Position numbers and translations under genes: made by a program. The notes below the pieces were generated by a model. It was given only the letters and a program-made list of their open reading frames with translations. It ran no database searches and was not told the origin of the DNA. A stretch of 26,251 nt of DNA from a virus (Duplodnaviria; Heunggongvirae; Uroviricota; Caudoviricetes), in the IMG/VR virus record IMGVR_UViG_2585427768_000003, positions 1 through 26,251 of that record; one strand, given 5' to 3'. This document shows, one piece after another, positions 1,369-9,278 of the stretch; within the stretch, counting starts at the first letter, position 1; each line of letters begins with the position of its first letter.

Positions 1369-1444
1369 GCCGATATAGCTCAGTTGGTAGAGCAGCGCAT
1401 TCGTAATGCGAAGGTCGTAGGTTCGACTCCTATTATCGGCACCA
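1369..1444 (+). tRNA. thrW: tRNA-Thr (anticodon CGU)
   Basis: 76-nt sequence GCCGATATAGCTCAGTTGGTAGAGCAGCGCATTCGTAATGCGAAGGTCGTAGGTTCGACTCCTATTATCGGCACCA; acceptor stem GCCGATA/TATCGGC, anticodon loop TTCGTAA, T-loop GGTTCGACTCC, encoded CCA. Confidence 0.92.
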
Positions 1445-4137: not shown

Positions 4138-4159
4138 AATGCCCCCGCAGGGGCATTTG
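4138..4159 (-). other. 9-bp-stem hairpin AAATGCCCC-CGCA-GGGGCATTT between two early genes
   Basis: perfect 9-bp inverted repeat with 4-nt loop, 12 nt after the 4171 stop; no clear U-tract, so possibly an RNA stability or processing element rather than a terminator. Confidence 0.3.
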
Positions 4160-4170
4160 CAGTAATGAAA

Positions 4171-4995
4171 TCAGGCGGTGAAAGTACCAATAAAGGTTTC
4201 TACTTTGCTGTCCTTGAATTTCTCAACAAGCAGATCACGAAATTCGTTAGCCATTTCTTCCTGCACCGCCTCCAGCTGAATAATGCGCAGAACCAGTACA
4301 GGACGATCGCCAGTGATAATACTGAGGCGTAATTTAAACGGACGTTCTTTCAGACCTTCAAACGGAACGCATTTAAATTCAAATGCCACTGGCATAATGT
4401 CTTTGGTCTTCGCTTCGACAGACTCCATCAGGGAGCGTTTGCCGCTGAAGTCATTATCTTCAAAATCAGCGGTCTGGTTTGCTTCAATCGTGATTTTACG
4501 GACAGCCGCAGCCGCTTTTGTTGCCTGAATAGCGTCACCATTAGCATCAAAGCCCACAAGATAGTCTGCCCAGTCTTCAATCCATTCTGCTAGTGACTTC
4601 TGGGAGTTACGCTCGCCGTTAATAGACAACAGAGCAGAGAACGGTGCTGTCTTTTTCAGTTTGAGTGTGGCGGTGTTATCTGCGTGACCTGGTTCATCAA
4701 TAGTACCCAGGTTAAGCACACTGACGGCTCGCATATTATCGGCATCGATAAAGCAGCGGGTGCCTTCATCTGCAAGATCTTTAGAATAACGGGTAAAGTC
4801 ATCGATGCTGGCAGTGGAAAGCGCACCACGGAAACGGAAGCGATTTAAATTAAATTTTTCCAGATCATGAATGCGGAAATTCTCAGGCAATGCCACAGCA
4901 TCGGCACCAATCTTACTGATAATTTCATTAACACCCTGAGCAGAAATAAGGGCATGGATTTGATTAATTGCGGTTGCGTCTAAGTTCTGAGACAT
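4171..4995 (-). CDS. conserved phage protein, YfdQ-like (DUF2303-type)
   Basis: 274-aa ORF, ATG at 4995 with GAGGA upstream; position between the YfdP-like and HD-domain genes mirrors CPS-53 yfdP-yfdQ-yfdR order; family assignment from recall only. Confidence 0.55.
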
Positions 4996-5060: not shown

Positions 5061-5423
5061 TTAATGACCTGCTGCGCGGAGTTTTCCGTCAGGTTCACCG
5101 GCAAGAGTCAGTAATTGTCCCTGGTCTTCCTGCAGAATAGTCAGGCGACCACCGCGATTGACATACATCGGCGTTTCGGTGGTGTCTTCTTCGGAAATTT
5201 TCCCGCGGTTAGTCGGGCGAACATATGAGAGTTTGTGTTTGATTTTCACACGGTTCTCATCAAATGGTTCGATTTCCAGGTTGAGTGAGACCTTACCTTT
5301 GGTTTTCGTGTTCATCACACCGGAAGCGACTTCACTGAGAACTGCGCCGATTTTGGTTTCAAATACGCCGCCGTCCAGCTCCCCAATAAATGCCTGCACA
5401 TCAGTACTGCGTTCGCTAGCCAT
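5061..5423 (-). CDS. hypothetical early phage protein (YfdP-like)
   Basis: 120 aa from ATG at 5423 (MASERSTDVQ...) preceded by AGGAG at 7-nt spacing; the ORF-track extension to 5741 runs through GC-rich structured noncoding DNA and is rejected. Confidence 0.65.
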   Translation of the reverse strand: MASERSTDVQAFIGELDGGVFETKIGAVLSEVASGVMNTKTKGKVSLNLEIEPFDENRVKIKHKLSYVRPTNRGKISEEDTTETPMYVNRGGRLTILQEDQGQLLTLAGEPDGKLRAAGH

Positions 5424-5471
5424 TTTTCTGCTCCTAATCATATCGACCCTGCAAGGTCGGTTGGTTTCTCC

Positions 5472-5560
5472 ACAAAACAGAGAAGAACACCTGCGGTGGC
5501 AGCCGCCCGGATGGATTGGGTTATGAGCCCGTCGTCCGGTGATGTTCTTCTCTGTTTTGT
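5472..5560. repeat. 18-bp perfect inverted repeat (ACAAAACAGAGAAGAACA / TGTTCTTCTCTGTTTTGT) with 53-nt GC-rich spacer
   Basis: arms 5472..5489 and 5543..5560 are exact reverse complements; sits in a ~440-bp noncoding interval upstream of the YfdP-like gene. Confidence 0.8.
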
Positions 5561-5861
5561 AAAAAGAGCGGTACCAGCCGGAAGCAAGTGTACAAACTGG
5601 TACCGCGAGGACTACACACAGCATAAAGTTGTGGTGCCGGGTGCCTCCCGGTGCCTGGCGAAAGTTGCACACCAGGCGGGTGGGTATCCACAGAAGGTCG
5701 ACTGTCAGCCTCAACCTTAACCCGCGTGCGCTGAGCCGCATTCACCACAACGCTAAGGATTCTCTCTGGTTGAAAATACTTAGCTGTTATGTGCCTGTCT
5801 TTTCACCACTTCAGGCTCGGTGGTATCTTGGTGTTTTCATATAGCCAAGAAGGAAATAGTT

Positions 5862-6053
5862 ATGACCAAAGAAGAAAAAATTCTTTATTTATTCCAACTA
5901 TCGGTTAAGACTCACACTGCATATCAGACTGCTGCCATGACATCAGATAAAAATTACAGTACGTCAGAAAACCCGATAGACGACATAAGCAAGCTTTACG
6001 ATAAGTTCGAAGCACTACTCGATAAAAAGTTTGCTGAGGCTGGGCTTGAGTGA
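5862..6053 (+). CDS. small hypothetical protein (63 aa), opposite orientation to the early-left operon
   Basis: ATG at 5862 preceded by AAGGAA; AT-richer than neighbours; 3' end overlaps the convergent ORF 6015..6221. Confidence 0.45.
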   Translation: MTKEEKILYLFQLSVKTHTAYQTAAMTSDKNYSTSENPIDDISKLYDKFEALLDKKFAEAGLE

Positions 6054-6221
6054 TTGTTGAATAATCGACAAAACCCAACTTAAATTTTCGTCAGTGGGCT
6101 CGATGCCATGTGCGGTGAGCTCACTTTTCAAAACTCCAAGCAATTCAGAGCTGATTTTCAATATATCTGCTTGATTTCTAACTATTCCCACTTTTTCCTC
6201 CCTTGGTCTACGCGCGGTCAT
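6015..6221 (-). CDS. small hypothetical protein (68 aa), first ORF downstream of the putative leftward early promoter
   Basis: ATG at 6221; basic N-terminus MTARRPREEK; weak Shine-Dalgarno; positional analogue of lambda N or rex, no family recognised. Confidence 0.35.
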   Translation of the reverse strand: MTARRPREEKVGIVRNQADILKISSELLGVLKSELTAHGIEPTDENLSWVLSIIQQSLKPSLSKLFIE

Positions 6222-6399
6222 GTTTTACGCCCAAACGACTTCACAGTTATTGTTTAAAATCTGGACTTTCATTTCATACACCTGCTTTAACATGAGTGCC
6301 TAGTGGCACAACATGACTCAACGAATCATCCTGGACTTCATATGCCCCAGGCGGCTACTTCGTGGGCGTCCTGCCTGTTCGTTATCTTTGATATAAAAT

Positions 6400-6464
6400 C
6401 TAACTTAACTTAGTTATTATGGCAAGAGAAAACACCAAACTTTTCTTAGTTCGGTGCCTTAGTT
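6400..6464. promoter_or_regulatory. OL-like operator cluster (CTTAGTT half-sites at 6409, 6445, 6458; dyad CTAAC-TTAA-CTTAG at 6400..6413)
   Basis: same 7-mer recurs in the cI-cro intergenic region; AT-rich interval immediately downstream of cI. Confidence 0.4.
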
Positions 6465-6478
6465 AGAGAAGAGAGGTC

Positions 6479-7105
6479 TTAGAGTTCGTATTGAACTCCT
6501 TTGACTACACCAATGATAAGGCAATTACCATTGATAGGGATGTTGGGATACCGAGGATTTAATGGCACTAAAAACTTTTGAGGGCCATCGATGACTAATT
6601 TTTTTACTGTAGCTTCGTTTGTTCCATCAAGTCGAGCGATGACTATTTTTCCATGACGAGGTTCTGCATCTGGATCTACAATCACTGTTGCGCCTTCTGG
6701 TATTGTTGGGAGGCCATTAGGGTTAGTCATGGAGTCACCTTTAACCTCTAATGCAAATGAGTTATCACCAATCTTTAATGATGTATCTACCCACTTGTCC
6801 ACTTCACTAAACACTTCTGCTGCCCTGCACTCAGTAAACTGCCCAGCCTGAACCCACGATATTACAGGAACTCTGCGCATGTTTGTGACGAGTTTGCCTT
6901 CAAACTCAGCACCATAAAGAATGTAATCTATTGACGTATTGAAGAACTTCGCTAATTTCGAAAGTGCCTCCCCACCAGGGGTATTGATGTCTTTCTCCCA
7001 GTACCCCACAGCAACGTCGCTTACTCCACAAAATTTACCCAATTCTTTCTGGGACGTTCCGGTAACTCTTCTCAGAGCTTTTATACGCTGACCAACCGTT
7101 TCCAT
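6479..7105 (-). CDS. CI-like prophage repressor (HTH_XRE N-terminus, S24 LexA-type peptidase C-terminus)
   Basis: 208 aa; N-terminal HTH (QKELGKFCGVSDVAVGYWEKD), C-terminal GDSM serine motif and downstream Lys; ATG at 7105 has no Shine-Dalgarno, compatible with a leaderless PRM-type transcript. Confidence 0.88.
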   Translation of the reverse strand: METVGQRIKALRRVTGTSQKELGKFCGVSDVAVGYWEKDINTPGGEALSKLAKFFNTSIDYILYGAEFEGKLVTNMRRVPVISWVQAGQFTECRAAEVFSEVDKWVDTSLKIGDNSFALEVKGDSMTNPNGLPTIPEGATVIVDPDAEPRHGKIVIARLDGTNEATVKKLVIDGPQKFLVPLNPRYPNIPINGNCLIIGVVKGVQYEL

Positions 7106-7127: not shown

Positions 7128-7192
7128 CTAAGTAATCTTAGTTTTTATTGACCAAAGATAGATTTGTAATTAGCATCTAATAAAACTTAGTT
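7128..7192. promoter_or_regulatory. OR-like operators and putative PR promoter (-35 TTGACC 7148..7153, -10 TAGCAT 7171..7176)
   Basis: dyads CTAAG-TAAT-CTTAG (7128..7141), ATTAG-CAT-CTAAT (7169..7181), CTAAT-AAAA-CTTAG (7177..7190) in the 97-bp interval between divergent cI and cro. Confidence 0.5.
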
Positions 7193-7202
7193 TGGAGGGC
7201 GT

Positions 7203-7403
7203 ATGACAACTGACGATATCGAAAGCTACTTCGGCAGTATTGAGAAAGTTGCTGCTTTTTTCGGCATAACAACTGAAGCCGTTTATCAGTGGCGAAACCG
7301 TCCGGGCCAGTTAATTCCAAAAGGACGTGCAGCAGAAGCTGCATATAGAACTTGCGGACGGTTGCCATTTAAACCTGAGCTTTATGAAAAATCTAATGGA
7401 TAA
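7203..7403 (+). CDS. Cro-like small HTH regulator
   Basis: 66 aa, divergent from cI, ATG at 7203 preceded by GGAGGG; HTH-like segment IEKVAAFFGITTEAVYQWRNR. Confidence 0.75.
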   Translation: MTTDDIESYFGSIEKVAAFFGITTEAVYQWRNRPGQLIPKGRAAEAAYRTCGRLPFKPELYEKSNG

Positions 7404-8336: not shown

Positions 8337-9278
8337 ATGAGCACTAAATTAACCGGCTATGTATGGGATGGTTGCGCTGCATCAGGCATGAAATTATCCA
8401 GCGTGGCAATTATGGCCCGCCTGGCTGATTTCAGTAATGACGAAGGTGTGTGCTGGCCATCAATTGAAACTATTGCCCGTCAGATTGGCGCGGGGATGAG
8501 TACCGTCAGGACGGCTATCGCACGGCTGGAAGCAGAAGGCTGGTTAACACGTAAGGCGCGTCGCCAGGGTAACCGCAATGCGTCGAATGTTTATCAGCTT
8601 AACGTTGCGAAGCTTCAGGCAGCGGCATTTTCTCAACTGTCAGATTCTGACCCGTCAAAATCTGACGCATCAAAATCTGACCCGTCAAAATTTGATGCGT
8701 CGAAATCTGGCAAAAAAGCGGGTTTTCACCCGTCAGAATCTGGCGGGGATCCGTCAGTAAAATCAAAACATGATCCGTCAGATAAAAAACCTTCTCGTCC
8801 GGACGCTTCGCAACCGGACACGCAGACGGATGAACAGGATTTTTTAACTCGCCATCCTGATGCGGTTGTATTCAGCCCTAAAAAGCGCCAGTGGGGAACG
8901 CAGGATGATTTGACCTGCGCACAGTGGCTCTGGAAAAAAATCATCGCCCTGTACGAGCAAGCCGCCGAATGTGACGGCGAGGTGGTTCGTCCCAAAGAAC
9001 CGAACTGGACAGCCTGGGCAAACGAAATTCGCCTGATGTGTGTGCAGGATGGTCGTACTCACAAACAAATCTGCGAGATGTACAGCCGCGTCAGCCGCGA
9101 TCCGTTCTGGTGCCGTAACGTGCTCAGCCCGTCGAAGTTGCGGGAAAAATGGGATGAGCTTTCCCTGCGCTTATCACCGTCCGTCAGCACGTACACCGAA
9201 AAACGCGAAGACCCGTACTTCAAAGCCAGTTACGACAACGTGGACTACAGCCAGATCCCGGCAGGATTCAGGGGGTGA
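8337..9278 (+). CDS. phage replication initiation protein (N-terminal HTH, C-terminal DnaT-like domain)
   Basis: 313 aa; ATG at 8337 with AGAGG upstream; N-terminus typical of replication-initiator HTH proteins; C-terminus ends ...DYSQIPAGFRG, resembling the DnaT C-terminal ...SQIPPGFRG; central linker encoded by an iteron array. Confidence 0.75.
   Translation: MSTKLTGYVWDGCAASGMKLSSVAIMARLADFSNDEGVCWPSIETIARQIGAGMSTVRTAIARLEAEGWLTRKARRQGNRNASNVYQLNVAKLQAAAFSQLSDSDPSKSDASKSDPSKFDASKSGKKAGFHPSESGGDPSVKSKHDPSDKKPSRPDASQPDTQTDEQDFLTRHPDAVVFSPKKRQWGTQDDLTCAQWLWKKIIALYEQAAECDGEVVRPKEPNWTAWANEIRLMCVQDGRTHKQICEMYSRVSRDPFWCRNVLSPSKLREKWDELSLRLSPSVSTYTEKREDPYFKASYDNVDYSQIPAGFRG
8639..8744 (+). repeat. 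iteron array (putative origin) inside the replication gene: 13-bp GTCARAATCTGAC-like repeats
   Basis: five copies at exact 15-bp phasing starting 8639, 8654, 8669, 8684, 8699 and a sixth at 8732; first copy GTCAGATTCTGAC is palindromic; degenerate copies to ~8780 followed by A-rich tract. Confidence 0.7.

Follow-up and report, generated by a model that had tools for sequence, protein, structure and literature searches.

A convergent, overlapping gene pair in the sieB position of an Escherichia coli lambdoid prophage: a candidate exclusion protein and its putative antidote

Phages P22 and lambda encode an exclusion protein, SieB, which is expressed by the prophage and from which the phage itself escapes by means of a cognate antidote and an antisense RNA (PMC12197685; P22 annotation). 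In P22, the sas antisense RNA switches the translation of sieB (PMC12197685). There is also a precedent for a defence gene accompanied by a small, overlapping antisense gene for its cognate inhibitor (PMC11087260), together with a related precedent (PMC11364771). Here we describe a pair of small genes in a stretch of 26,251 nucleotides from a tailed phage (IMG/VR virus record IMGVR_UViG_2585427768_000003, positions 1 to 26,251), which is referred to as the window and which represents an E. coli lambdoid prophage of the SfII/SfV/e14 type. A plus-strand gene for a 63-residue protein (5862..6053) and a minus-strand gene ending at 6015 converge and overlap beside the repressor gene. By analogy with the systems above, we give about an even chance to the reading that they form a cognate two-gene cassette in the sieB slot, in which an exclusion or accessory protein expressed by the prophage is matched by an antidote expressed from the leftward early promoter PL, the two being arranged as an antisense "noncontiguous operon".

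A conserved convergent gene pair

The plus-strand gene is present as the first-pass annotation described it, with a 63-aa open reading frame (ORF) at 5862..6053, the Shine-Dalgarno sequence AAGAAGGAAAT preceding its ATG, and an AT-rich composition, the GC content of the cassette being 40.0% compared with 49.8% for the whole window. Its acidic product, listed in RefSeq as "hypothetical protein" (WP_000159356.1), matches phrog_2605 (E = 1.4e-33 over 1-63/69), for which PHROG gives the function as unknown, and has homologues that are 64-84% identical in Atlantibacter and Klebsiella and 40% identical in Edwardsiella phage EPP-1. The minus-strand gene had been drawn as the longest ORF, running from ATG 6221 to 6015 and encoding 68 aa, and had been credited with a weak ribosome-binding site. 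This frame exists, but the gene probably comprises only 6015..6191, giving 58 aa from GTG 6191, judging from the alignments: almost all of the homologues are 58-59 aa long and start at residue 11 of the 68-aa reading, GTG 6191 has GGGAGG at 6202..6197 with a spacer of 5 nt, and no Shine-Dalgarno sequence is present upstream of ATG 6221. The ribosome-binding site therefore appeared weak because the longest-ORF call had placed the start at ATG 6221 instead of GTG 6191. The 58-aa protein is acidic (isoelectric point 5.2, net charge -2.4), and its sequence matches phrog_15476, likewise of unknown function in PHROG, with E = 7.4e-50 over 1-68/68. Homologues, for example in Kluyvera, are 64-81% identical, and over its last 51 residues the protein is 41% identical to the C-terminus encoded by a 121-aa EPP-1 gene, which itself converges on the EPP-1 homologue of the plus protein. 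The 58-aa protein is the counterpart of the C-terminal "specificity" domain in longer relatives of 121-201 aa. AlphaFold2 predicts a two-helix hairpin both for the plus protein (helices 3-28 and 38-59; predicted local distance difference test score, pLDDT, 76.6) and for the minus protein (helices 7-27 and 34-53; pLDDT 74.1).

The 3' ends of the two genes share a dual-coding overlap of 39 bp (6015..6053), as had been noted at the outset. Selection was evaluated on the non-overlapping parts in a three-way comparison of the window, an Atlantibacter-type locus (L005) and a metagenomic locus (L012), in which the ratio of nonsynonymous to synonymous substitution rates (dN/dS) is 0.10-0.16 for the plus ORF and 0.12-0.21 for the minus ORF, and in which the called frame is the sole stop-free frame of six in each part. 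On the basis of these sequence comparisons, both ORFs are real genes under purifying selection. The first-pass annotation had proposed conservation and synteny as a check, and the pair is indeed kept in convergent orientation in Atlantibacter, Klebsiella, Kluyvera and Edwardsiella prophages, being recognizable at about 40% identity in EPP-1. In all 27 loci of the plus family the two genes are paired, convergent and overlapping, with an overlap of 27-39 bp in every relative examined and of 15-27 bp in three more distant loci. It is extremely unlikely that one or both ORFs are chance open frames. Both are very short and have no Pfam family, and only the plus ORF is annotated by RefSeq/PGAP and in the SfII record, as might be expected of such frames, but the low dN/dS values, the unique stop-free frames, the conservation of length and sequence down to about 40% identity, and the strong Shine-Dalgarno sequences before both corrected starts all argue against this idea.

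The sieB-position slot and its flanking elements

Directly 5' of the plus gene lies an element that we term block A (TGCCTGTCTTTTCACCACTTCAGGCTCGGTGGTAT then CTT, 5792..5829, with the conserved element at 5792..5826), which was delimited from alignments and column statistics. The 35-nt block A is 94% identical to lambda 34395..34429 and P22 29650..29684, and in both phages it lies just 5' of sieB, a plus-strand gene that is convergent with N (lambda 35037..35438) or gene 24, respectively. As a result, the plus gene of the window can be placed in the sieB locus: it is a plus-strand gene, converges on the gene that comes first after PL, and is located 3' of the sieB-upstream element. This shared element lends weight to the earlier view of the plus ORF as an immunity-region moron that runs antisense to the early-left operon. 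The resemblance is one of position, and BLASTP gives no alignment between the plus protein and lambda SieB at E <= 100. Block A is retained in phages that differ in repressor and in cassette, as is block B (approximately 6322..6383, minus strand), the 5' leader of the PL transcript, which was also defined from alignments and is absent from EPP-1.

Within block A there are two inverted repeats with 5-nt arms (GCCTG/CAGGC and ACCAC/GTGGT), which interleave and are invariant. Read on the leftward strand, they could fold as an H-type pseudoknot in which loop 1 has 3 nt and loop 3 has 7 nt and is A-rich, and the variable positions of block A map to these predicted loops; the arms never vary, and a covariation signal is therefore lacking. 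Block B contains a CAGGC...GCCUG hairpin. When folded as single sequences, the PL leader and block A do no better than shuffled sequences (z about -0.4), and an Rfam E-value scan of 5400..6480 gave no match in either block or in the hairpin described below. Block A is unannotated in the lambda and P22 records, and it may correspond to "boundary sequences" that are reportedly mentioned in the HK620 genome paper. For the plus gene, a candidate promoter of the extended -10 type is present on the plus strand within and next to block A, comprising TTCACC (5802..5807), a 16-nt spacer, TG (5821..5822) and TATCTT (5824..5829). In sequences of the SfV/e14/SfII type, we infer that TG-G-TATnCT with TTnACC 16 nt upstream is the sole plausible promoter of the plus gene. 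Lambda and P22 do not have the "TAT" of GGTGGTAT, but they carry about 37 extra bases there that are missing in the window.

A second element, hairpin H (TCTTGG-N13-CCAAGA, 5826..5850), is located between block A and the Shine-Dalgarno sequence of the plus gene. RNAalifold missed this variable hairpin because its registers differ, and each sequence was instead searched for a stem, with shuffled sequences as the control. Stems of 6 or more Watson-Crick pairs are found in 84% of the 58 distinct sequences listed compared to 2.9% of shuffles, and the structure is conserved while the sequences of the arms vary, at least 24 different arm pairs being observed (TTCTCG/CGAGAA in lambda and P22). When the two strands are compared, the minimum free energy (MFE) is lower on the minus strand for 49 of 56 sequences, and internal G.T versus A.C pairs number 10 and 9. 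Since hairpin H is located 5' of the transcription start site mapped for P22 sieB, its site of action is probably the leftward transcript or the DNA itself. The "putative rho-independent terminator" assigned by the SfV authors (4142..4174) is this covarying hairpin.

A pattern scan for block A in IMG/VR and other loci yielded at least 136 instances, in nearly all of which a plus-strand ORF starts 27-38 nt past the element. These ORFs belong to at least 26 unrelated plus-strand families, including zinc ribbons, a protein with two transmembrane segments and many small helical proteins, and most of the families listed have a convergent minus-strand ORF with an overlap of 4-170 nt. In phage SfV, for example, the slot contains orf33 (98 aa, minus strand) and an unannotated 81-aa plus-strand ORF (4162..4407 of U82619) with an 83-bp overlap; this ORF has a Shine-Dalgarno sequence and is found as 7 variants in 19 loci. 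The corresponding slot of the E. coli K-12 element e14 is occupied by ymfI (plus) and ymfJ (minus), which overlap by 63 bp and adjoin the repressor gene ymfK. There is no similarity between the slot proteins of the window, SfV and e14. Taken together, these sequence comparisons indicate that the slot between the two conserved non-coding blocks is hypervariable and that the pair is one cassette of it. Moreover, among 5426 complete E. coli genomes, 1944 have the conserved flanks and 63 carry this particular cassette.

A trace of such an exchange is preserved in the window itself, which matches SfV in two pieces. Positions 6225..6293 of the minus strand, when compared with the translation of SfV orf33, contain a remnant of the 5' end of an SfV-type orf33 that encodes MLKQVYEMKVQILNNNCEVVWA and a stop, amounting to 22 codons, with the stop 3 nt before ATG 6221. 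We interpret the remnant as a recombination scar, implying that the present cassette replaced one of the SfV type, and it may act as an upstream ORF. The 10 extra codons in the 68-aa reading of the minus gene adjoin this scar, and an RRPR stretch falls solely within these codons, 5' of the conserved start. In phage ST64B (L138, 1705..2520), block B and a region resembling STnc100 are kept in the absence of block A and of any cassette, and about 800 bp there contain no credible ORF. Downstream of the repressor of ST64B, Owen et al. reported two genes that are induced and a non-coding RNA, STnc1310 (PMC7067206). ST64B was nevertheless dropped as a proxy with a published transcriptome since it has neither block A nor the cassette.

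When the minus partners are clustered separately by their first 60 and last 45 residues, the C-terminal clusters map almost one-to-one to plus families in the loci listed, and the N-terminal clusters are each common to two or three different plus families. An exhaustive profile search with the minus family of the window found only 15 representatives, in which the domain is always C-terminal and is preceded by one of five N-terminal contexts, namely none, a coiled coil ("KQEP"), MEFKDLP, the EPP-1 type, or a ClpX-like zinc finger. At all three of the further loci found via the minus C-domain alone, one of which is a Rac/Qin-like prophage without block A, there is a convergent homologue of the plus protein with a 15-27-bp overlap. 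The pair therefore behaves as a unit. In addition, among the representatives examined, recombination has exchanged the N-terminal modules of the minus protein but has never split the C-domain of about 50 aa from the plus family. The Pfam model zf-C4_ClpX scores above its gathering threshold in four of ten minus partners tested, which suggests a link to ClpX or the presence of a dimerisation module. The ClpX C4-type zinc finger (PF06689, 28.6-45.3 bits) is N-terminal in the minus partners of L018, L027, L052, L083, L092, L102 and P0035, where it is fused to different C-terminal domains.

These patterns allow a broader, and more tentative, proposal. It is possible that the sieB-position slot is a general hypervariable hotspot, in which dozens of cassettes consisting of an "exclusion protein + matched antidote" are built on one architecture. 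The plus gene, expressed by the prophage, would lie at a fixed distance from the element of about 35 nt and its covarying hairpin, from lambda to the Edwardsiella phages, and the PL-expressed minus protein would recognise the plus protein through its variable C-domain and would carry exchangeable N-terminal modules (ClpX zinc finger, coiled coil and others) with a common function. The element itself, with repeats compatible with a pseudoknot, would then constitute an undescribed RNA or DNA signal.

Proposed role of the pair and its alternatives

The first-pass annotation had placed the minus ORF first after a putative leftward early promoter, and a promoter scan indeed identifies a PL-like promoter (TTGCCA-17-TAGATT, 6425..6397, minus strand) whose sequence overlaps with OL operator repeats (6398..6416 and 6434..6451). 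These repeats belong to families D2 and D3, which recur at the rightward operator OR (7128..7144 and 7175..7193), and SfV, e14 and EPP-1 carry an equivalent TTGACA-17-CATAAT with operators. Because PL and OL are positioned 5' of the minus gene, the early-left transcript reaches this gene before any other intact one. PL, the minus gene, the antisense of the plus gene and the genes from yfdP to int follow one another on the minus strand, and the plus gene is embedded among them, which is the layout of a noncontiguous operon.

In the reading that we favour, a weak promoter in or next to block A would drive transcription of the plus gene against the direction of the PL operon; having its own promoter, the plus gene would be expressed in the lysogen. 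The minus gene, as the first gene in a repressor-controlled PL transcript, would be made only upon infection or induction, a timing suggested by its position here and by expression data for ymfJ of e14. Firing of PL would generate a leftward RNA that is antisense across the whole plus gene, thereby silencing it, and the minus protein, being the specificity domain alone, would bind its matched plus protein; the outcome would be that the phage has its own antidote to its exclusion or accessory protein. Antisense regulation through the convergent overlap, as initially suggested, is supported by analogy with e14, where ymfI-ymfJ is listed as a convergent excludon on the basis of RNA sequencing coverage (PMC12288877). 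During the late SOS response of K-12, ymfJ and the YmfJ protein are induced along with ymfM, a gene on the PR side, with little change in ymfI (PMC11002266). A type II toxin-antitoxin module was considered and rejected since the genes are convergent rather than co-directional and no toxin-antitoxin family is matched in Pfam, NCBIfam or PADLOC.

A serious rival, albeit one that we regard as fairly doubtful, reverses these roles. The PL-expressed minus protein would be an early-lytic effector (for host take-over, kil-like or anti-defence) with its activity in the variable C-domain, and the plus protein would be the matched inhibitor in the lysogen, either buffering leaky expression from PL or blocking superinfecting relatives that depend on the same effector. 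Polymorphic toxin-immunity modules likewise combine a conserved N-terminal part, a variable C-terminal part and a small neighbouring gene, and so the modular pattern of minus proteins and co-varying plus genes fits this alternative too, as do the location of the minus gene under PL and the strong SOS induction of ymfJ. On the other hand, a predicted 58-aa acidic helical hairpin with no catalytic motif seems unlikely to be an effector alone, the documented prophage precedents make the small antisense gene the inhibitor, and the homologous locus of lambda and P22 has its exclusion function on the plus strand.

Several observations weigh against the cognate exclusion-antidote cassette. The candidate promoter of the plus gene has 8 of 12 consensus matches and was not called by the promoter scan, and the P22 record maps the sieB promoter and transcription start site 3' of both block A and the hairpin. 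In lambda and P22, moreover, sieB converges on N or gene 24 and not on a cognate inhibitor. Scans of both proteins and of the 121-aa EPP-1 relative with Pfam, NCBIfam and PADLOC gave nothing meaningful, and Foldseek searches of the PDB were uninformative, returning 0 matches for the plus model and only matches at E > 1 for the minus model; as both models are plain helical hairpins with no good PDB match, the fold offers no functional lead. In addition, several of the plus families listed have no credible minus partner, and the co-variation of minus C-domain and plus gene is partly trivial, arising from linkage and overlap.

The last two points would also be expected if two independent accessory genes merely share one recombination cassette, so that the overlap acts only through transcriptional interference or antisense RNA, as in an excludon; linkage by overlap alone would yield co-occurrence, and antisense control alone is documented at this locus in the form of P22 sas. 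We nevertheless consider such independence rather improbable, given that N-domains have been swapped repeatedly and the C-domain has never parted from its plus family, though only 9-13 codons overlap, and that the pair has moved intact into a different phage backbone.

It is even less credible, and indeed highly improbable, that the minus ORF encodes an N-type antiterminator of this phage, as might be supposed from its position. The gene does stand first after PL, where lambda has N and P22 has gene 24, and to that extent the earlier assignment to the lambdoid N position is correct; the implied N-like function is not supported. With its isoelectric point of 5.2 and charge of -2.4, the minus protein differs from lambda N (11.0 and +14.6), it is predicted to be folded into two helices (pLDDT 74.1) rather than disordered, and the conserved 58-aa form has no arginine-rich motif. 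No boxA-like sequence is present within several kb of PL or PR, a search of the PR side gave no copy of the PL leader block, and in SfV and e14 unrelated proteins fill the slot while the leader stays conserved. Some mechanism of antitermination is probably needed all the same, because the leftward transcript meets strong terminator-like structures before yfdP.

Those structures are two very stable leftward folds at 5455..5625 (minus strand), which together have an MFE of -72 kcal/mol (z = -6.0) and which the phage must read through in order to express the genes from yfdP to int. The first is a 12-bp stem followed by UCUUUUU, at the 3' end of a match to the Rfam family STnc100 (RF02076; 5559..5781, minus strand; 48.5 bits against a gathering score of 47), and the second is a hairpin of about 25 bp with arms at 5472..5496 and 5536..5560. 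STnc100 is a known prophage-associated small RNA family, said to be related to PasD (bioRxiv 10.64898/2026.05.13.724894), and the match lies immediately downstream of block A in the leftward direction. Inspection by eye of the minus strand of block A for a sigma-70 or sigma-54 promoter of STnc100 gave none that was convincing. PGAP places a frameshifted "hypothetical protein" pseudogene over the STnc100 and inverted-repeat region 5' of yfdP (5061..5741, minus strand; 3739..4049 in L001), and the 226-aa open frame at 5061..5741 is probably an artefact of a GC-rich structured RNA, not a gene.

Prophage setting and comparison with known systems

The prophage adjoins a tRNA-Thr(CGU) gene (anticodon CGT, 1369..1444, plus strand) at its end, which is consistent with the thrW attachment site used by SfII/SfV-type phages. 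The early-left side of the window carries int, xis and the genes from yfdT to yfdP on the minus strand, and the gene pair is followed by a gene for a cI-like repressor of the S24-peptidase type (6479..7105, minus strand) and a cro gene of the P22_Cro type (7203..7403, plus strand), past which there are ymfL-like and replication genes. Six tandem repeats of about 15 bp (TCAAAATCTGAC-like) with inverted copies are present at 8625..8747 within a replication-initiator-like gene (8337..9278), and these are probably origin iterons. The 801 bp surrounding the gene pair are 100% identical to E. coli KSC1031, and Shigella phage SfII is 99.6% identical to the window over 5700..6383. Homology with SfII stops at 6383/6384, implying that PL and OL belong to an immunity-specific module.

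Among the closest of the described systems is sieB-esc-sas of P22 and lambda, which is in the same slot and has the same element of about 35 nt with a hairpin upstream. SieB, however, has about 190 aa and no sequence similarity to the 63-aa plus protein, and Esc, its antidote, is SieB itself truncated in frame, whereas the candidate antidote in the window has a gene of its own, located on the other strand and overlapping the 3' end of the plus gene. The P22 sieB promoter was mapped downstream of the conserved element, in a region of which about 37 nt are missing in the window. Lambda N and P22 gp24 are similar to the minus protein in being encoded by the first gene after PL but differ from it in charge, predicted fold, nut sites and replaceability.

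Tha/Ith of the S. aureus phage 80alpha (PMC11087260) resembles the pair in that a defence gene has a small, overlapping antisense inhibitor gene, ith. The host and the proteins are unrelated to those considered here, Tha being a HEPN RNase, and the promoter logic is inverted, with tha on the cI transcript and a constitutive promoter for ith (PMC11087260). The function of Tha/Ith has been demonstrated, whereas that of the pair in the window is predicted. In phage phi80, TaiEcA/AtiEcA comprises a defence gene that is embedded in a lytic operon in reverse orientation, beside its cognate counter-defence gene; Ati is expressed only in the lytic cycle and binds Tai, and the Tai/Ati pairs are version-specific (PMC11364771). 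The operon in that case is a late one controlled by Q rather than PL, the proteins are again unrelated, and no 3' coding overlap has been reported. The ymfI/ymfJ genes of e14 and orf33 with the 81-aa ORF of SfV, in contrast, share an identical architecture and identical flanks with the window (block A, hairpin, convergent pair, PL/OL and a cI-like repressor), although their proteins are not homologous to those of the pair; they are alternative cassettes of the same slot.

For the locus itself, the start of the minus gene has been corrected and the "N-equivalent" label removed. If the proposed reading is correct, the pair would belong to a reservoir of matched small prophage proteins that is widespread and for the most part unannotated, given that about one-third of complete E. 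coli genomes have the conserved flanks and that RefSeq annotation often omits the minus genes. Numerous new candidates for phage-exclusion proteins, along with their natural inhibitors, would then become accessible through a simple genomic search rule, namely the position 27-38 nt downstream of the conserved element. Moreover, the principle of defence with cognate self-immunity in an antisense unit, which has been shown in S. aureus phages and phi80, would extend to the sieB locus of lambda and P22.

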